64,000 bases of DNA from NCBI GenBank assembly GCA_965203055.1, contig OZ241863.1, forward strand, positions 2,944,001 to 3,008,000. Reading direction: 5' to 3'. The position numbers are program-made. Positions 1-54,000 of the stretch are shown here, in pieces. Numbering within the stretch: position 1 is the first letter of the stretch; the number at the start of each line of letters is the position of its first letter. The DNA comes from Spirochaetia bacterium. Its GTDB lineage: Bacteria; Spirochaetota; Spirochaetia; SZUA-6; Bin103.

Positions 1-3000
1 GTGCACGGCGGCGAAGCGTCCGCGGTCGAGCGAGCGCAGCAGTTCGACCACGGGCCGCGCCAGCGCCAACACCTGCGGCGCGGCGCGCAGCCGCAGCCGC
101 AGCGCGGCCAGCGCCTGCGCCGGCACGTCGACCGCGAACTGGGGATGTTCGATGCGGCGCACCACCAGCCGGTACGAGCCGGCGTCGGGCGGCAGCGCCG
201 CTCCCGGCGGCACGCGCAAGGCGCGCAGGCCGGCGGTGGCCGGCGCCGGCGCGGCGGCGAGCGGCAGCGGATGCTCGCGCCCGGCGGCGTCGACCAGACG
301 GCTGCCGCGCAAGTCGAAGAACGACTCCCAGCGCCACTCGCGGCCGATGTTGAAGTTGTACTTCGGTTCCAGCAGCAACGGCGGCAGCAGCGCCCGGCGG
401 CCGCAGGCGTGCGCCTCGCGCAGCAGGCAGGCCAGGTTGGATGCCTGGTGGTTGAGGCCCGTCACCACGGCGACCGACCGTTCGTAGCGGAGATAGCGCG
501 GATGCTCGGCGTCCGTCATGGCGAAGTGACTGCCACGGCTCGCGCCGAGTCTGACCGACAACGCGCATCGCTGTCCATCATCCGAGGGCCGGCATCGCCT
601 ATAATCACGGCGTGACTTCCTGCTCGGCAGACGGCGACCGGCGCCTGGAGTGGGCCGCGCTTGCCGCCGTGACGCTGATCGGCTTCGGCCTGCGGTGGTC
701 GTATCTGGGCGACCCGATACGGGTCGACGAGGGGAAGATCGCGGCCTGGGTGCAGTCCTGGACGTTCCGGGAAGTGGCGTCGTTCTACGAAAACATCGGC
801 AACCACATCCTCCATACGCTGCTCGTGGACCTCTGCCACACGCTGTTCGGGCTGCAACCGTGGAGCATTCGCCTGCCGGCTCTGCTGCCGGGCGCCGCCT
901 TGATTCCGGCGACCTACCTGGTCGGCGCGGCGCTGTTCTCCCGGCGGTCGGCGCTGCTGGCCGCCGGGCTGGCGGCGGGCGCTCCGTTCCTGGCGTTGTT
1001 TTCGGTGATCTCGCGCGGCTACGTGCTGCAGAGCGCGCTGCTCATGGCGCTGGCGTGGCTGCTGCTGAGGCTTGCCGAGTCCCGGTGGCGGGGCCTGACG
1101 CTCGCCGCCGGCGTCCTCGCCGCCGGCATCGTCGGAGCGCTCGCCCTCCACACCCTTCCCACCACGTTGTTCGCGCTTCCCGGCCTCTACGCCGGCGCGG
1201 CGCTGCGGACGGCGTGGGTCGCCAAGCCGGCCGCAGCGGCGCGGGGCCGGACCGGCAGCGCGGGCCGGCTGCTGCCGGCGCTGGTGGTCACCGGCGGCCT
1301 GGCGCTGCTCCTCTACCTGCCGGTATTCCTGGGGACCGAGTGGGAACGGATCGCGGCCAACCGGTACACCGCGGCGCAGCCGGCGGCCCTGCTCTGGGAA
1401 CGACTGGTGGACCGTATGGCGGGGACCGCCCGGCACTGGGCCTGGGACCTTCCCGTGCCGGCGCAGGCGCTGTGGGCGCTGGCGGCGGGCGCCGGCCTGC
1501 TGGCCGCGGCGCGCCGGCGGCAGGCCTCGTCGGCGTGGTTCGTGGTGCTCGTGATCACTTCGACCGTGGCCTTCTCGGTGGCGCTGCGGCGGGTGCCGCC
1601 GGTGCGCGGCTACCTGTTTCTCATGCCGTTCTTCCTGCTGCTGCCGGCCGTCGCCATCGACGCCGCGGCGCAGCGCCTGGCGCCGGGGCGCGGGGCGGCG
1701 GCAACGCGCTTCGCCGTCCCGCTGCTGGCGGTGCTGCTGGCCGCCGCCGGCGCGGTCTGGACCTGGTCGGGCGGCTGGCTGGAGGCCGAGCGGGGCCTGC
1801 TCAGGGGGCGTTACGCCGGCGCCGAGAGCGCCATGCGGGCGCTTGCGGCGGTGGTGGGCGAACGGGACGTGGTGGCGCCGCCGGCGTGGCCGTATCGCTA
1901 CTACGCCGCGCTGCACGACCTGCCGATCCGCTTCGCAGCCCCCGAGTCAGGAGACATCGGGGCCGGCGACGTCGACAACGTCTACCTGCTGGTCCTGGAC
2001 GGCGACGAGGTGAGCGGCGCCGTCGAGCGGTACGGACTCCGCGACCGGTTCGGGGAGCCGCGCCCGTTCGGCGTGTTCCCGGATCTTCGGGTCTTCGTCG
2101 TCAGCCGGCAGCGCGGCCGGTAAGGCGGCCCCCTACGGCGCGCCCGGCGCCGCGCCGGACGCCGACGCGGGGGCCATGCTGCGCACGCTGGCGATGCGCG
2201 CGGGGGGATTCAGGAGCTTCCACAAGACTTCGTTCATAAAGTCCAGCACCTCGGGTTGCACCGTGGTATTGCGCATCGTCGGGTGCAGCCAGTTCATTCG
2301 CGCCGGATCGAAGTCGGCATCGAGGTGACCGCCGGCGACCGCCATGTCGAACAGTTGCGATCCCGGATAGGGGGTGGCGAGTTGCAGGTTGGCGCGGTAC
2401 ATGCCGGCGTCCATGTGGCGCTTCGCCAGCATGATCGTCGCCTTCATTTCGTCCAGCGTTTCGTCCGGCCAGCCGATGATGTAGTTCCCCCCGACCGTTA
2501 TGCCATTGCGCTGAGCGGTCTCGATGATCGAGACGGTATCGGTCTTGTCGAGGTTGATCTTGCCGGTGGCGTACTTGTCGATGATGCGCTGCGAGGCGGA
2601 CTCGAAGGGCAGGGAAATCTCCTTGAATCCGGCGTGCGCCATCACCTCGAACAATTCCTGATCCGCGACCAGCCGGCCGGATTGCGGGCGGCACATGTGG
2701 ACGATGTTGATGCCGTTCAGGTCCTTCAGCTTCAGACCCTTGCCGATGACTCCGCGGATGATCTGCAGCGCCCGCTTCTTCTTGGCGAGCAGGGAATCGT
2801 CCTCGATGAACACGTACTCGACGTCGAGCGATTGCAGGACGTCGAACTCCTCCATGACGCGGGGGATCGACTTCACCCGCAGCTCGCGCAGGTTGCCGGT
2901 GAACGAACCGACGTCTTCCTTGGAGATATGACAAAACGTGCACTTGAACGGACAGCCGCGGGAGGTCATCAAACTGCCGTACCGGATGCGGTCGCTGCCC

Positions 3001-51000: not shown

Positions 51001-54000
51001 GGCCTGCGGGTTGTCGTACTCGACGAACACCCGCGCGGCGCGGGCCAGCGCCACCCGCACCTCGACGATCAGCGCGTTGCGCTCGCTGAACGAGGCGTCG
51101 TGCCGCAGGACGGCGGGCGCGTCCGCGGACGCCGGCGCCGCGCCGAACACGATAAACGCAGCCGCCAGCGCCGGCACCAGGCTAGACCGACCATACGGCG
51201 GTCGACGATCTAGCGTCACGCCGGGCGCCGTCAAGATCGATTTCATCGTTGCGGGATTCTACGCGCGCGGTTGCGCGCCGGACAACCGCCACGCCAGCCC
51301 TCATGGTTTCCTGACCGCCGCGCAGGCGCCGTCGAACGGCACGCCGGCGCTGGGGCGGGGCGTCAGGCGCGGGCCACCTCGAAGGCGGCGATGGTGCGCG
51401 TCGCGCGGCTGAACTCCACGCCGAGCAGGTGGATCGGTTCGCCCAGGCCGCGGTACTTCTCCGCGTAGCCGCGCGCCCGCAACTGCGCCAGCGCCGCCCC
51501 GTCGGGCTCCAGCTCCACCACCTTGAACTCGAACAGATAGACGTTGCCCCGGTACCGCACCGCCAGATCGACCCGCCCGCGGCTGCTCGAATCCTCCACC
51601 GTGACGTCCAGCCCCACCGCCGCGAACCAGGAGTAGCAGACGCTCGCGTAGTAGCCCTCGTAGCGCGCGATGTCGTTGCGCGTGTGCCACTCATACGGGA
51701 TGCCGGCGAAGAACGCCCGGAACAGCCGCTCCAGTCCGGCGAAGTCGTTCGCCGCCAGCAGCCGCTCCAACGCCGTGTCCTGCGCCAGCCGGCGCGCTGC
51801 TGCGGGCGCCAGCGCCCGCAGCAGGCGTTCGTTCAGAGCGAGCCGCACTTCGCGGTTGGGGTAGCCGAGCCGGTAGCGCGGTCCGCGCGCCGAGTGCTCG
51901 ACGCTGCGGATGGTCAGATAGCCGGTCTGGAACAGCAGCGCCTCGGGCTCCATCTCGTCCACGTCGAACGCGGACAGCAGCTCGCCGCCGGCCAACATGC
52001 CGTCCAGCTCGGGCGATGCGACGCCGCGCTTGATCAGGATGTCGATCAGAAACGACGGCGTACCGGTCTCGAACCAATGGGCGGCGAATTCCCGGCGGTC
52101 GAACAGCAGCAGGATGTCGAACGGGTTGTAGACCCGATCGTCACCGCGCCAGTTGTAGCCGTTGTACCAATCGCGGATCTCCTCCCGGTCCAGCCCCGGC
52201 AACTCCGCCGCGAACACCGTGTCGAGGTCGGCCTCGGTGTAGCCGCAGATCGCCGCATAGCGCGGATCCAGCGTGATGTCGATCAGATTGTTGAGGCCGG
52301 AGAAGACGCTGACCTTGGAGAACTTGCTCACCCCGGTCAGCAGCGTGAAGTGGATGTGGGCGTCGGCGAACTTCACGTTCGAGTACAGGCTGCGCAGCAG
52401 GCGGCGGTTGGCGGCCGCGATCGCCGGCGTCCCCAGCGCGTCCAGGATCGGCTTGTCGTACTCGTCGATCAGCACCGCTACCCGCCGGCCGGCGCTCCGG
52501 TGCAACTCCTCCAGCAGGCGCCGGAAGCGGATCGGCGCGGAGGCGCTGCGCGCGCTCGCGCCGGCGGCCGTCTCGAGCGCCGTCAACTGGTCGGCCAAGT
52601 CTTCTTGCAGGCCGTCCGGCGCCGCGTAGTCGCCGCCGCCGAAGTCGAGGCGAACCACCGGGCGGCGTTTCGACCACTCCCAGTGGTCGTGCACGTGCAG
52701 GCCGCGGAACAGATCCTCGCTGCCCTCGAACAGTTCCTTGATGGTGTCGACCAGCAGGCTCTTGCCGAAGCGGCGCGGGCGCGACAGGAAGTAGTGCGTG
52801 CCTCCCCGTACCAGGCTGAGGATGAAGGCGGTCTTGTCGACGTAGTAGCAGTCATCCTTGCGGAGCTTGCGGAAGGTCTGGATGCCGGTCGGCAGCTTCC
52901 TCCTCATCATGGGCGCGTCTTGGTGCGGCGCGGTCACGGCCCGGCCATGATAGACTGAACGCCGCGCGGCTATCATCCGCTCATCCGCCCGGCTTTCATG
53001 GCCCCTGCGCCGCGGCCGGCGCCGCAAGCTCCGCGCTCCAGAGCTGGCCTTGGCCGCTGATGAACTGGCCGGTGCGGAGGCGGGCGATCCCATACTCCGG
53101 CAACGGCGCCAGCGCCACGCACGCCGCGCCGAGCCGCGCCCCGTGTTCCCGGTAGTCGAAGTCCCGGTTCTCGAAGCCGTGCGGCCGGTCTTGCGGGGAG
53201 AGGTCGCCGGCGTCCGCCGGAATCACGTGCAGGAAGAACCGCGCCCGCAGGTCCTCCGCCGCGCACGGCTCCTTGTGATATGCCAGCGCCGTTCCGTTCA
53301 GATAGAGGTCGAACGCTCCGCGCGCGGCCGGCGCTCCCCAGGTACCGGAGCGGATAGCGGCGCGCGCCTCCCGATAGCGCTGCGCGGTCGGTCCGGCCGC
53401 GAACTCCATGCTCCACAGTTGGGACCGGCCCCGCGCAGCGAGTTGCCCGGTACGGATGCGCGTGAATTCGTAGTCGGGCAGTGCCACGACCGCCACGCAG
53501 GCGCCGTCGAGCCGCATGCCGCCCTCCCAGAGGTAGAAGTCCAAAGTATGAGGGAACAGAAAGCCTGCGTGAACGTATTCGTCATCTTCTTCCGGACGAT
53601 TCGGTATACGGTCGGCGTCTTAGGAGACCATGGTAACCAGAAGTACATGGGAGGCGGCGCTTGAGGACGCCGAAAAGAAGCTAGAGGACGGGAATGTTAT
53701 TTCGGCACTCAACCCCCTCCAGGAAGCAGCCCGGCAACTATCCGCCGAACTCGAAGCTAAACATCGGCTCGAAGGTGATAATGAGGATGTCAAGGTAGTC
53801 CACTACACGTCAATCGAGACCATCCACGCGTTGCTTACAGAGCCCTCGAAGCAGTATCTGCGGCTTATACGACTCGGTGCATCTCACCGATCCACAAGAG
53901 GGAAGGTATGTCTTCAAAGAAATTGAATTGGGAAAGAATCAAAGTGGCTTGAATCTTCCGTCAGCCACGCCTATATCATCTCAACTCGAAATGGGAAGAC

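Follow-up and report, generated by a model that had tools for sequence, protein, structure and literature searches.

Paralogous GT-C glycosyltransferases and aryl sulfotransferases with tandem-repeat 5' ends: a candidate contingency island in a sponge-associated spirochaete

Sulfotransferases of the ASST type need no PAPS and are best known for acting on small phenols. According to one published account (PMC13426309), bacterial PAPS-independent aryl sulfotransferases reportedly sulfate sugars and alcohols besides phenols. The ASST2 protein of the locus discussed here matches PDB 9kf6 (E 2.6e-13) and AssT 3elq (E 1.6e-9), and its H376, H320 and H241 align with H436, H356 and H252 of E. coli AssT; in a set of 11 sequences H376 and H241 never vary, while H320 is absent from the columns conserved at 90% or more. 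For the membrane glycosyltransferases (PMT) of the same locus, ArnT (5f15) is the top Foldseek match of a full-length AF2 model of PMT1 (pLDDT 79; E 7.9e-6), followed by STT3, AglB, PglB, AftA and ALG9; by this model, PMT1 has a GT-C fold like that of ArnT. Across 42 sequences, D30 and D31 of the loop that follows TM1 hardly vary.

The window, i.e. the whole stretch of 64,000 nt that was analysed, comes from a sponge-associated, high-GC spirochaete. Our reading, held with moderate confidence, is that of a contingency island in which slipped-strand switching lets the cell envelope be glycosylated and sulfated combinatorially in the periplasm. The gene content described in the genome-wide survey's note is borne out: the window holds 8 PMT_2 (GT-C), 5 ASST and 6 DUF1703-type ATPase-nuclease genes (AP; AAA-ATPase_like + PDDEXK_9), along with one GtrB/PgfS-like GT2 gene, one Wzy_C gene and three lipoprotein genes. 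The features are listed below with their evidence; all PMT_2 and Arylsulfotrans genes exceed the Pfam cut-off, a Pfam span is given where it differs, and CTD denotes the C-terminal domain discussed further below.

612..2123 (+): divergent PMT_2 GT-C gene, 503 aa, without C-terminal repeat domain (Pfam PMT_2 29.7 bits, cut-off 26.1)
2133..3677 (-): B12-binding radical SAM gene (Pfam B12-binding + Radical_SAM; all NCBIfam matches below cut-offs)
3791..5359 (-): AP1, DUF1703-type (Pfam; 96% identity to AP5)
5402..7792 (-): PMT1, GT-C + 2 CTD (Pfam, hydropathy, CTD HMM)
5429-5767 and 5804-6148 (-): the CTD copies of PMT1 (CTD HMM)
7869..8810 (-): AP2, DUF1703-type, internally deleted, profile positions 51-201 absent (Pfam 7869-9413; BLASTP)
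8851..9591 (-): pyrF (OMP decarboxylase), housekeeping gene within the array (Pfam OMPdecase E 1.1e-33)
9658..12165 (-): PMT2, GT-C + 2 CTD, start codon uncertain (Pfam, BLASTP, CTD HMM)
13050..14942 (-): ASST1, propeller + 1 CTD (Pfam 13050-15245; BLASTP, CTD HMM)
14960..16942 (-): ASST2, propeller + 1 CTD (Pfam 115.7 bits)
16973..18232 (-): Uma2-family (PD-(D/E)XK) gene, real start probably 3' of the ORF start (Pfam Uma2; 82% identity to the copy at 32191-33411)
18045..19670 (-): AP3, DUF1703-type (Pfam, BLASTP)
19817..21160 (+): Calx-beta lipoprotein 1 with LAGC lipobox; a 97% inverted repeat has its left arm here (Pfam Calx-beta, sequence)
21232..23388 (+): Wzy_C membrane protein (O-antigen ligase / O-oligosaccharyltransferase family), long C-terminal extension (Pfam 41.3 bits, cut-off 31.7; 10 hydropathy peaks)
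23350..25731 (-): PMT3, GT-C + 2 CTD (Pfam, BLASTP, CTD HMM)
25795..27714 (-): ASST3, + 1 CTD (Pfam, BLASTP, CTD HMM)
27854..29407 (-): repeat lipoprotein of a ~35-member family, ~40-aa repeats with GSGYTSAP motif (sequence repeats)
29566..30945 (-): Calx-beta lipoprotein 2, right arm of the 97% inverted repeat (Pfam, BLASTP)
31125..32141 (+): GT2 polyprenyl-phosphate glycosyltransferase (GtrB/PgfS/ArnC-like), C-terminal membrane helices (Pfam Glycos_transf_2, hydropathy)
32191..33411 (-): Uma2-family gene (Pfam)
33350..34897 (-): AP4, DUF1703-type (Pfam)
34980..37115 (-): PMT4, GT-C with a single CTD (Pfam, BLASTP, CTD HMM)
37305..39677 (-): PMT5, GT-C + 2 CTD, start GTG-GCA-ATC (hydropathy, sequence)
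39795..41672 (-): ASST4, + 1 CTD (Pfam 39795-42284; CTD HMM)
41774..44309 (-): PMT6, GT-C + 2 CTD, including leader ATG 44309-44307 (Pfam 41774-44104; sequence, frame analysis)
44110..44287 (-): perfect 8-nt tandem repeat of PMT6, CCGAACCG on the coding strand, 22 units (TRF 22.2 copies, 100% matches)
44470..44946 (-): recombination scars: N-terminal piece of a DUF1703-type gene plus a PMT C-terminal domain remnant (read from sequence)
45004..46545 (-): AP5, DUF1703-type (Pfam)
46614..49161 (-): PMT7, GT-C + 2 CTD, including leader ATG 49161-49159 (Pfam 46614-48947; frame analysis)
48975..49139 (-): 8-nt tandem repeat of PMT7, 19 whole CCGAACCG units (TRF 20.5 copies)
49312..51246 (-): ASST5, + 1 CTD (Pfam, hydropathy)
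51363..52910 (-): AP6, DUF1703-type (Pfam 51363-53093; BLASTP)
52996..53544 (-): PMT C-terminus remnant, 88% identity to PMT7 residues 591-770 (BLASTP, CTD HMM)

A six-frame search of the whole genome places all PMT_2 genes in two regions, as had been claimed, but with 12 PF13231 matches above the cut-off rather than 11, the twelfth being a second GT-C type at genome position 2788571. Likewise, seven ASST genes lie in the two regions, while PF05935 yields ten genomic matches above the cut-off and not nine; ten DUF1703-type genes are also located in these regions, two of them frameshifted. Region 1, the one outside the window, further encodes a Sulfotransfer_2 protein, a UbiA prenyltransferase and a second GT2. 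Eight of the 12 PMT_2 matches have an ASST within 6 kb, against a circular-shift mean of 0.23 (73 of 20,000 shifts reach 8), which upholds the co-location. Paralog identities were put at 77-93% for PMT and 70-82% for ASST; by BLASTP within the window they are 64-93%, the upper end standing and PMT6 being an outlier at 64-68%, and 63-76%, with a pair involving region 1 reaching 80%. The view of the cassettes as recently duplicated paralogs of periplasm-facing enzymes is supported. "Diversifying", if taken as positive selection, is not borne out: dN/dS is 0.49-0.64 in every segment, never above 1.

The predicted topology needs some revision: hydropathy gives PMT 7-9 membrane peaks where 6-8 segments were claimed (the AF2 model has more helices), the soluble C-terminal tail is present at ~390 rather than ~350 aa, and the ASST N-termini are signal-peptide-like, with a weak hydrophobic core in ASST2 and ASST3. 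The proposed lipid-linked-sugar logic holds, in that a GtrB/PgfS/ArnC-like GT2 (31125-32141; best NCBIfam matches 273 bits for PgfS and 157 bits for ArnC, each short of its equivalog cut-off) accompanies the GT-C enzymes.

Three points are new relative to the survey's note, of which the first is a domain common to both enzyme classes. PMT and ASST proteins end in the same 113-residue, two-cysteine beta-sandwich domain, their C-termini being 50-60% identical over ~100 aa (BLASTP). No Pfam family covers it; an HMM built for it counts 20 occurrences in the window and 141 across all loci searched, and its AF2 model (pLDDT 93) is a beta-sandwich with two invariant cysteines. Besides PMT and ASST, six more polytopic membrane proteins encoded in the genome have the CTD at their end; elsewhere in the genome, a third membrane-enzyme type carries it. 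That it binds a shared target and holds the enzyme classes to it is a guess, since structure comparison matched it to nothing more specific than FN3/Ig/CBM-like folds (best Z 7.4). The shared CTD and the repeat switches, the second new point, give more weight to variable surface decoration.

The claimed link to lipoproteins, the predicted acceptors, is tentative and draws on three observations. Calx-beta lipoprotein 2, the repeat lipoprotein, ASST3 and PMT3 follow one another in the same orientation as an operon-like run, with the repeat lipoprotein directly upstream of ASST3 and PMT3; a second ASST locus, at genome position 1273729, abuts three lipoprotein genes; and, among 24 genomes of the family, the 5 that have the lipoprotein family are also those with full-length PMT arrays (in a sixth, G019, the PMT1 query matched over the C-terminal domain only). 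The five genomes are probably a single clade, and the co-occurrence probably reflects this. With ASST2 as query, 14 of the 24 genomes gave matches at E<=1e-20. Members of the lipoprotein family elsewhere in the genome have poly-G/C tracts in their 5' ends, and these poly-G-switched repeat lipoproteins are the likeliest candidate acceptors.

The candidate switches, found within the 5' coding ends of one ASST and three PMT genes, are tandem repeats of 8-nt or 7-nt units (12-28 of them, all perfect), with copy numbers of 22, 19 and 28 (8-nt) and 12 (7-nt) in this genome (G000). In PMT a conserved leader ATG precedes the repeat and the conserved first membrane helix follows it; in ASST the repeat falls in the n-region of the signal peptide. 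A Shine-Dalgarno-like AGG lies ~11 nt from the leader ATG; no sigma-70-type promoter was found at the repeat leader. Of the four genes, one reads in frame and the other three are off by one unit, and at every out-of-frame repeat locus +1 or -2 units restores the full ORF (PMT 839-859 aa and ASST 749-756 aa in G000; up to the end of the retrieved locus, or 669-676 aa, in the sister genome G017). Thus PMT6, out of frame at 22 units, regains 847/839 aa at 23 or 20, and PMT7, out of frame at 19 whole units, regains 851/843 aa at 20 or 17. With the same leader and just two 8-nt units, in frame, PMT5 is an unexpanded version of the switch leader; ASST5, with the N-terminus MKSIL...DRRPPYGRSS, likewise shows in unexpanded form what region 1 has as the 7-nt-repeat ASST. 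Repeats with units of at least 7 nt number six in the genome, four in the two PMT regions; 27 of 54 non-triplet genome repeats lie at 5' ends (lipoprotein 22, PMT 3, ASST 1, type-B GT-C 1). Between near-identical flanks, G017 and G000 differ in length (PMT6 11 vs 22 units; ASST 15 vs 12). Both PMT orthologues and the ASST of G017 are out of frame too, which, with three of four in G000, fits early decay of these genes; the same pattern also fits contingency loci.

The interleaving of PMT and ASST genes recurs in the more distant arrays of G021 and G009 (50-58% identity, tblastn), which hold ~15 PMT and 5 ASST genes. The divergent PMT_2 gene (612..2123) is kept beside the array in G017 (94.5%) and in G021 and G009 (63-65%). 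The DUF1703-type genes do not belong to a conserved functional core: the retrieved arrays of G021, G009 and G011 have no close copy, their only matches being 27-30% identical. G15-G41 tracts lie inside PMT and ASST ORFs of G021 and G009, and from these sequences, the third new point, distant relatives appear to have converged on poly-G tracts in the same gene families. The G18/G20 and G21/G41 pairs have flanks 100% identical as measured; the G15/G17 pair is 99.6% identical upstream and, as sliced, 25% over the downstream 240 nt, which encode the same translated sequence in another frame. The ASST is intact with G18 and shifted with G20, the PMT intact with G15 and shifted with G17, and G21 and G41 are both shifted. 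Homopolymer sequencing errors may account for such poly-G length differences between the assemblies.

In the proposed contingency mechanism, the predicted GT2 activity would load a putative sugar on polyprenyl phosphate on the cytoplasmic side; once the lipid-linked sugar has been flipped, an ArnT/PMT-like GT-C enzyme, one of the many paralogs, would pass it to a periplasmic acceptor, and paralogous secreted ASST-type enzymes would add sulfate from a putative donor in the periplasm. Neither a flippase nor an aryl-sulfate carrier pathway was identified. The CTD of PMT, ASST and the second GT-C type, taken to be disulfide-bonded, would tether the enzymes to one target, with Thr/Ser and the conserved Tyr of the GSGYTSAP repeats as acceptor sites. 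The ASST enzymes may instead act on small phenols, for which such enzymes are best known. Slipped-strand changes in repeat number would turn individual genes on and off at random, through 8-nt/7-nt units in the 5' coding end here and poly-G tracts inside the ORF in sister lineages, so that a population would carry many modification combinations. Such random switching of surface-modifying genes would resemble the way in which pathogens vary their surface.

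The window DNA has ~70% G+C; genes were called in it from third-position G+C and named with Pfam. Nearly all genes from 2133 to 53544 are carried by the minus strand. The PMT_2 (GT-C) paralogs with a C-terminal domain (PMT1-PMT7) and the arylsulfate sulfotransferase paralogs (ASST1-ASST5) are interleaved with DUF1703-type genes, in which AAA-ATPase_like and PDDEXK_9 are combined (AP1-AP6), and with further genes in the following order.

Gene order of the array in the direction of transcription
Minus strand, first block: AP6, ASST5, PMT7, AP5, PMT6, ASST4, PMT5, PMT4, AP4, Uma2-type gene
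31125-32141, plus strand: GT2
Minus strand, after the GT2: Calx-beta lipoprotein 2, repeat lipoprotein, ASST3, PMT3
Plus strand, then: Wzy_C, Calx-beta lipoprotein 1
Minus strand, following block: AP3, Uma2-type gene, ASST2, ASST1, PMT2, pyrF, deleted AP2, PMT1, AP1, B12 radical-SAM gene
Plus strand, end of the array: divergent PMT_2 gene

All eight PMT_2 genes of the window score 29.7-38.9 bits on Pfam PF13231 (cut-off 26.1), and the five ASST genes score 85.9-115.7 bits on PF05935 (cut-off 24.2). The genome-wide survey's note had confined the PMT_2 genes to this array and one other region (region 1, C1:2782447-2814929), with the ASST genes concentrated in the same two places. A six-frame search of the whole genome agrees, as 12 of the 12 PF13231 matches over the cut-off and 7 of the 10 PF05935 matches lie in the two regions. 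The co-location of the two families that it described also holds: an ASST is situated at most 6 kb from 8 of the 12 PMT_2 matches, against a mean of 0.23 in circular shifts, of which 73 of 20,000 reach 8. The identity ranges given there were slightly too narrow; in-window pairs are 64-93% identical for PMT and 63-76% for ASST (BLASTP).

The content of region 1 (genome 2780001-2819000) includes a GT2, Sulfotransfer_2, a UbiA prenyltransferase, a GT-C of a second type (type B), and HNH, YhgA-like, Transposase_31 and UPF0236 genes. It is contiguous with the window's array in the sister genome G017, and separated from it by ~130 kb in the present genome. The housekeeping gene pyrF (8851-9591) lies inside the array, between PMT2 and the internally deleted AP2. 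PADLOC gave no match for the DUF1703-type protein and a weak match of the Uma2-type proteins to PDC-S17, and NCBIfam has no family for PMT1, ASST2, AP1, Uma2, Wzy_C, PMTa or the lipoproteins. A 92-nt tRNA-Arg(GCG) called by ARAGORN at 16509-16600 lies inside the ASST2 ORF beside a 15-nt tandem repeat, and is probably a false call in G+C-rich coding DNA.

Two PMT genes of the window carry an 8-nt tandem repeat exactly at the 5' end, namely PMT6 (44110-44287; 22 units, 100% matches) and PMT7 (48975-49139; 20.5 copies with 19 whole units, 99% matches). A third PMT, in region 1, has 28 8-nt units (genome 2802673-2802896) and is in frame, and an ASST of that region, which is out of frame, carries twelve units of 7 nt (genome 2793543-2793626) within the signal-peptide n-region. 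All four repeats are situated between the start codon and the conserved N-terminus of their genes. In the PMT genes, the repeat comes after a conserved leader (ATG-GCA-AT...) and before the first membrane helix, which opens with a conserved "PWRDAL"; its codon position is identical in three paralogs and in the orthologues. The PMT repeat is devoid of T and hence holds no start codon; PMT5 has the same leader followed by two units in frame, so that translation is expected to run through the repeat, giving a (PNRRTAEP)n tail at the N-terminus.

A full ORF is obtained at every third unit number in all seven loci examined in the present and the sister genome. Measured from the leader start, ORFs of the present genome, when in frame, are 839-886 aa long for PMT and 749-756 aa for the ASST; in the sister genome, the ASST is 669-676 aa long when in frame, and the PMT genes, when in frame, are open to the end of the fetched locus (496-518 aa). 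One locus in seven is in frame at present and the out-of-frame genes need +1 or -2 units. Three of the four repeat-bearing genes of the present genome are out of frame, and the ORFs of ~770 codons downstream of the repeats stay stop-free. Repeats with a unit of at least 7 nt number only six in the genome, four being the PMT and ASST repeats of the two regions. Comparison with the sister genome reveals 22 units versus 11 at PMT6 and 12 versus 15 at the region 1 ASST, both with almost letter-identical flanks; the PMT7 repeat has 19 units in both genomes, but the comparison of the orthologues shows a 1-nt indel in the sister. From these sequences, we infer that the genes would switch on and off within the population, and the repeat loci could be followed directly by amplicon sequencing.

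Within the family, the leader pattern is confined to these two genomes (2 of 24), and it had no match among metagenome contigs. Five or more units of the 8-nt repeat do occur at 36 metagenome contigs (G+C 0.38-0.74, with many of the repeats at contig ends); as none gave a BLASTX match to any island protein, they were set aside as unrelated microsatellites. No sigma-70-type promoter was found at the PMT6 leader, the sole site of the scan being a palindromic one at 44778-44806. Directly upstream of the PMT5 start, at 39680-39760, a short ORF (MRHLSTALRMSLILGLAVNR, then stop) is a remnant of an ASST signal peptide, and PMT5 may have captured an ASST promoter and leader. We also note a different 8-nt repeat (GCTCAACC, 15 units) at genome 1804096-1804215, ~1.8 kb from a gene 42% identical to part of the Calx lipoproteins, and a C14 tract 19 nt before the alignment start of a type-B GT-C with the shared domain described below (genome 4311927-4313906), which is a further candidate switch.

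More distant relatives in the family, G021 and G009, possess arrays of ~15 PMT and 5 ASST genes, 50-58% identical to PMT1 by tblastn (56-60% in a separate search of the genomes), with a GT2 at the end, and neither 8-nt repeats nor a close DUF1703 copy was found in these arrays. Inside their PMT and ASST ORFs are G tracts of 15-41, the lengths of which may include error in these assemblies, whereas their presence in the genes is not in doubt. One ASST is in frame with G18 in G021 and shifted with G20 in G009, the flanks being 100% identical. Similarly, a PMT is in frame with G15 in the former and shifted with G17 in the latter; the upstream flank is 99.6% identical, and the downstream 240 nt, at 25% as sliced, yield the same translated sequence in another frame. 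At a third locus (G21 versus G41, flanks 100% identical) both copies are shifted. Slippery sequence of two different kinds within these families is an argument for selection acting on switchability itself.

The two enzyme families have more in common than their location. Every ASST ends in ~100 residues with 50-60% identity to a pair of tandem segments that close every PMT (all-vs-all BLASTP). An HMM of this domain, with 113 positions, detects 141 copies in the window and 16 related loci combined, 20 of them in the window itself, and two Cys are invariant in 55 diverse copies. The AF2 model of the domain is a beta-sandwich (pLDDT 93). Foldseek against the PDB gave nothing at E<=0.001, and the best of the VIA-align matches to 48,161 chains has a Z of 7.4, in the range which that method calls common, all of them being generic FN3, Ig, cytokine-receptor or CBM sandwiches. 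No Pfam family covers the domain in the C-terminal part of PMT or in 24 distant domain-bearing proteins, of which 21 are without any family, one has a weak PMT_2 and two have sub-threshold Subtilosin_A only. The matches of the C-terminal part to Subtilosin_A (20.9 bits, cut-off 25) and AfAlkA-like (17.3, cut-off 26) are likewise below threshold and were taken as chance, and the ESM Atlas gave no usable match.

The same domain is present at the end of six other polytopic membrane proteins of the genome, which belong to the second GT-C-like type (type B), one of them in region 1. At least 804 database proteins contain it, and the best 120 of these have 2-5 copies each, mostly behind a membrane module. 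Three catalytic scaffolds with one common periplasmic module are the best sign that GT-C, type-B GT-C and ASST would share a target or a site of action; any function of the module, a binding role included, is a guess. The domain merits its own family definition. A 1654-codon open frame at genome 191354-196318, with two membrane modules, two copies of the domain and then ~400 residues, may be a fusion or several genes read through. The shared domain and the repeat switches lend further weight to the earlier proposal of an island that decorates the surface; we infer its chemistry and its acceptor as follows.

The N-terminal half of the PMT paralogs is polytopic, with 7-9 hydropathy peaks. LDDYG directly follows TM1 in nine of the nine paralogs of the genome that were aligned, and this acidic motif of the first periplasmic loop, in which D30 and D31 are nearly invariant among 42 sequences, is presumably catalytic. 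The full-length AF2 model of PMT1 (pLDDT 79) matches ArnT best in Foldseek (5f15, E 7.9e-6, probability 1.00), followed by STT3, AglB, PglB, AftA and ALG9, with TM-scores that are modest (0.3-0.5) owing to the extra domains. Because of these matches of the model, the PMT paralogs are assigned as GT-C glycosyltransferases. The sole match of PMT1 to the PDB by sequence, 25 residues of subtilosin A (E 0.77), is due to chance. The GT2 (31125-32141) has membrane helices at the C-terminus and scores best in NCBIfam on PgfS (273 bits) and ArnC (157 bits), both below the equivalog cut-offs. PgfS and ArnC load sugars on polyprenyl phosphate. That the PMT enzymes would transfer sugar from polyprenyl phosphate to a periplasmic acceptor is what their neighbours suggest, namely this GtrB/PgfS/ArnC-like GT2 and the UbiA prenyltransferase of region 1.

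As acceptors, we favor the lipoproteins. Among the 54 non-triplet repeats of the genome, 22 are located at 5' ends of lipoprotein-family genes, three at PMT, one at ASST and one at type-B GT-C (the C14 tract). In the window, two lipoprotein genes are followed by ASST3 and then PMT3 on one strand, and another domain-bearing ASST abuts three lipoprotein genes. Among the 24 genomes of the GTDB family, the five that have the lipoprotein family are also those with full-length PMT arrays; they are probably one clade and thus count as about one event; a sixth genome, G019, matches over the C-terminal domain only. The lipoprotein repeats are rich in Thr, Ala and Pro with a GSGYTSAP motif in each, and it is suggestive, though only that, that these would offer hydroxyl and phenol acceptors.

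A further 22 of the 54 repeats are without a match, including the very long runs C26, C21, C21 and G18 (among genome 1667450, 1891480, 3986337 and others), and for a G22 run at genome 205565 the one match is weak, GT2-like and ~1 kb distant. Further switchable genes may be present in the genome. The two Calx genes (19857-21119 and 29616-30914) are arranged as inverted repeats, with a complementarity of up to 97% over 417 and 387 nt. They flank ~9-10 kb with Wzy_C, PMT3, ASST3 and the repeat lipoprotein, and recombination between the repeats would invert this block. Inversion as a further switch was not adopted, the orientation in the sister genome being the same. An open frame upstream of the repeat lipoprotein (29408-29512) starts like Wzy_C (21232-21262), with MPNPRRLERA, which indicates that the duplication of the Calx gene included the 5' end of Wzy_C.

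A serious, though on balance unlikely, alternative retains the enzymology and the switching and replaces the lipoproteins with a glycan or glycolipid (O-antigen-like, LOS-like or exopolysaccharide), to which the GT-C enzymes would add side-branch sugars in the manner of GtrC or ArnT, while the ASSTs would sulfate sugar hydroxyls to give a sulfated surface polysaccharide suiting the sponge matrix. The presence of a Wzy_C ligase/polymerase-family gene inside the island fits such a product, but Wzy_C proteins also include protein O-oligosaccharyltransferases, and no Wzx, Wza or ABC transporter set for export and polymerisation was found among the window ORFs scanned. Likewise, the GT-C model finds its closest fold in ArnT, which modifies lipid A, the GT2 is similar to ArnC, a carbohydrate-type Sulfotransfer_2 accompanies the UbiA prenyltransferase in region 1, and the beta-sandwich domain is similar (Z ~7) to the CBM and FN3 modules found in carbohydrate-active enzymes; the two lipoprotein genes upstream of ASST3 and PMT3 on the same strand argue for the other acceptor. 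Sulfation of sugars by bacterial ASTs, as reported in the available part of PMC13426309, would also suit a glycan.

The similarity of the ASSTs to solved sulfotransferases is weak but specific (9kf4, E 4.5e-16; E. coli AssT, E 2.2e-10 (profile)). When a profile of 11 ASSTs is aligned with AssT, QH(376)TA corresponds to Q435-H436, W-x-H(320)-x-NS to W354-A-H356-V-N-S and HH(241)E to T251-H252-E253, the alignment of the two N-terminal stretches being weak (domain scores -2.3 and 4.8 bits). All 11 sequences have H376 and H241; H320 is present in ASST2 and not among the columns at >=90%. We take H436, H252 and H356 of AssT to be active-site residues (PDB 3ELQ). The N-termini resemble signal peptides, with a clear hydrophobic core in ASST5 and ASST1 and a weak one in ASST2 and ASST3, and an oxidising compartment would suit the conserved Cys pair of the C-terminal domain. 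Phenols are the substrates of characterised ASSTs, and to our knowledge the physiological role of ASST-type enzymes is not settled, their natural function being poorly understood.

A more far-reaching proposal, which we regard as rather doubtful, makes the ASSTs the extracytoplasmic arm of a two-step sulfation. The cytoplasmic PAPS-dependent Sulfotransfer_2 would charge an aryl carrier, from which the periplasmic ASST paralogs, guided by the beta-sandwich domain common with the GT-C, would pass sulfate to tyrosines or glycans of variable surface lipoproteins. With a separate slippage switch for each enzyme and lipoprotein gene, the coat of protein, sugar and sulfate could be varied combinatorially and evade sponge phagocytes or phages.

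It is quite improbable that the ASSTs act on small phenolics of the sponge or its microbiome, in detoxification or sulfate shuttling, and were amplified beside the GT-C only through a recombination-prone region and with no common target. Action on phenols is what the available part of PMC13426309 reports for characterised enzymes, and the organism is present in sponge metagenomes; moreover, two ASST genes lie outside the islands, one of them devoid of the C-terminal domain, and relatives that also lack it (~43% identity) are found in most genomes of the family. However, the island ASSTs possess the C-terminal domain of the GT-C at 50-60% identity, the PMT/ASST interleaving recurs in arrays only 50-58% identical (tblastn), and ASST genes have their own repeat switches in two lineages, which is hard to explain for a detoxifying enzyme. 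A macromolecular target in the envelope is suggested by the co-switching and by the fusion of the ASSTs to a domain that envelope glycosyltransferases also carry.

Conservation within PMT is at least 0.9 in the membrane core versus 0.6-0.8 in the periplasmic half. From the core to the linker, synonymous divergence rises from 0.18 to 0.41, a difference suggestive of gene conversion; by segment, dN/dS is 0.49-0.64 everywhere, with none above 1. Past recombination is marked by remnants of PMT, ASST and AP genes, with scars at 44470-44946 and 52996-53544, the internal deletion of AP2, and frameshifted AP genes in region 1, where an rve + AAA_22 insertion sequence adjoins an N-terminally truncated PMT and one PMT is split by an IS. 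The PMT1-AP1 and PMT7-AP5 units are 93-96% identical. DUF1703 families of Cardinium symbionts are described, in the available part of PMC6387759, as expanded, frequently recombining and of unknown function. Since the arrays of G021 and G009 are without a close copy, the DUF1703-type genes would be passengers or drivers of recombination and not part of the pathway.

These remnants and scars, the high identity of the duplicated units, the dN/dS of ~0.5, the three out-of-frame genes among four and the expansion and recombination of DUF1703 families in other symbionts (PMC6387759, in part) could be read as neutral segmental duplication and decay, driven by DUF1703-type or other PD-(D/E)XK nuclease genes and insertion sequences, with young pseudogenes and incidental microsatellites, but this is hardly credible, as the ~770-codon frames are stop-free and restored by one repeat unit, the repeats have 12-28 units with 99-100% matches at the same codon position in three paralogs and orthologues, a different repeat type occurs in the same families of a sister lineage without a close DUF1703 copy, and half of the non-triplet repeats (27 of 54) lie at 5' ends of these surface-related families.

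The window DNA is found in runs labelled sponge or marine metagenome from six studies. Over 24200-44100 (19.9 kb), contigs of four runs from four studies cover 30 of 30 bins in each, as listed pieces of 249-1100 letters and joints with 20-30-letter sides that are too short to show structure. Our literature search found no description of such a GT-C/ASST contingency island, none combining sponge-symbiont spirochaetes with sulfotransferase, and nothing related on contingency loci in sponge symbionts. A term search of the available part of a study of latrunculid sponge spirochaetes gave no mention of sulfotransferase, mannosyltransferase, phase variation or lipoprotein.

Several known systems resemble parts of the island. 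The ASSTs share the Arylsulfotrans propeller with E. coli AssT, the residues aligned with H252 and H436 being invariant and that aligned with H356 being present in ASST2, and they may likewise be secreted. In contrast, their sequence similarity to AssT and the solved ASSTs is low (E 1e-9 to 1e-16), they carry, as a C-terminal fusion, a domain that glycosyltransferases also have, and their genes occur in tandem with repeat switches. Cpz8 and Cpz4 carry out the two-step sulfation of caprazamycins; similarly, a PAPS-type sulfotransferase gene (Sulfotransfer_2) is present in the same island as the ASSTs, and for a Cpz-type carrier pathway no PKS was found among the ORFs scanned in the two regions. 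Neither another carrier pathway nor a DsbL/DsbI pair turned up, although no search was aimed at them. Mycobacterial embCAB also has GT-C paralogs arranged head to tail and ending in soluble periplasmic domains, although here ASST genes are interleaved, the domain is also borne by the ASSTs, and repeat switches are present.

The Pfam PMT_2 match is shared with protein O-glycosylation by actinobacterial Pmt, which acts on lipoproteins, and by Streptococcus mutans Pgf (PgfS GT2 with PgfM1/PgfM2). PgfS provides the best NCBIfam score of the GT2, and the candidate substrates here are likewise secreted lipoproteins, with much Thr, Ala and Pro. That score (273 bits), however, falls well short of the equivalog cut-off of 500, ArnT and not Pmt1/2 is matched best by fold, and ~ten paralogs are present where one or two are usual. 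In GtrABC of Shigella and Salmonella phages, the GT2 GtrB makes the polyprenyl-phosphate sugar and GtrC, a variable, specificity-giving polytopic GT-C, transfers it in the periplasm, with phase variation in Salmonella. The combination of a GtrB-type GT2 with polytopic GT-C enzymes resembles this O-antigen glucosylation; the GtrB-like and GT-C parts are present, and no GtrA-family flippase was matched among the window ORFs of at least 150 aa scanned. Unlike GtrABC, one GT2 would serve many tandem GT-C paralogs, variation would be by repeat slippage in place of Dam/OxyR epigenetics, and the GT-C enzymes have C-terminal beta-sandwich repeats with interleaved ASST genes. The mycoplasma variable surface lipoprotein systems Vlp and Vsa offer a parallel for a large repeat-lipoprotein family with homopolymer-tract switches, but here the modifying enzymes would also be switched, which would add a second, post-translational layer of variation.

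In switching logic, the island resembles the phase-variable genes of Haemophilus, Neisseria and Campylobacter, such as lic2A and lgtA/C/D/G. These LOS/LPS glycosyltransferase genes, as described in the available parts of PMC6530457 and PMC6479036, and those of the island have non-triplet simple repeats in the 5' coding part of sugar-transferase genes. In both, gain or loss of units restores the frame, and several independently switched genes produce, or in the island would produce, a combinatorial surface. The enzymes differ, being periplasm-facing GT-C with lipid-linked donors here and cytoplasmic GT-A/GT-B there, as do the repeat units (8 and 7 nt versus 1-5 nt), and here sulfotransferase genes also carry switches. 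The host is an uncultured sponge-associated spirochaete and not a vertebrate pathogen, and its switching is predicted. Contingency loci for surface modification are of a known kind; new here are the GT-C and ASST enzymes, their shared uncharacterised domain, the 8-nt and 7-nt units and the environmental symbiont. Vertebrate pathogens are typified by surface-sugar genes that turn on and off at random. The same logic is found in an uncultured sponge symbiont with other enzymes and unusual 8-nt and 7-nt repeats, and its sister lineage arrived at it separately via poly-G, which suggests strong, fluctuating selection on the symbiont surface by host cells or phages.
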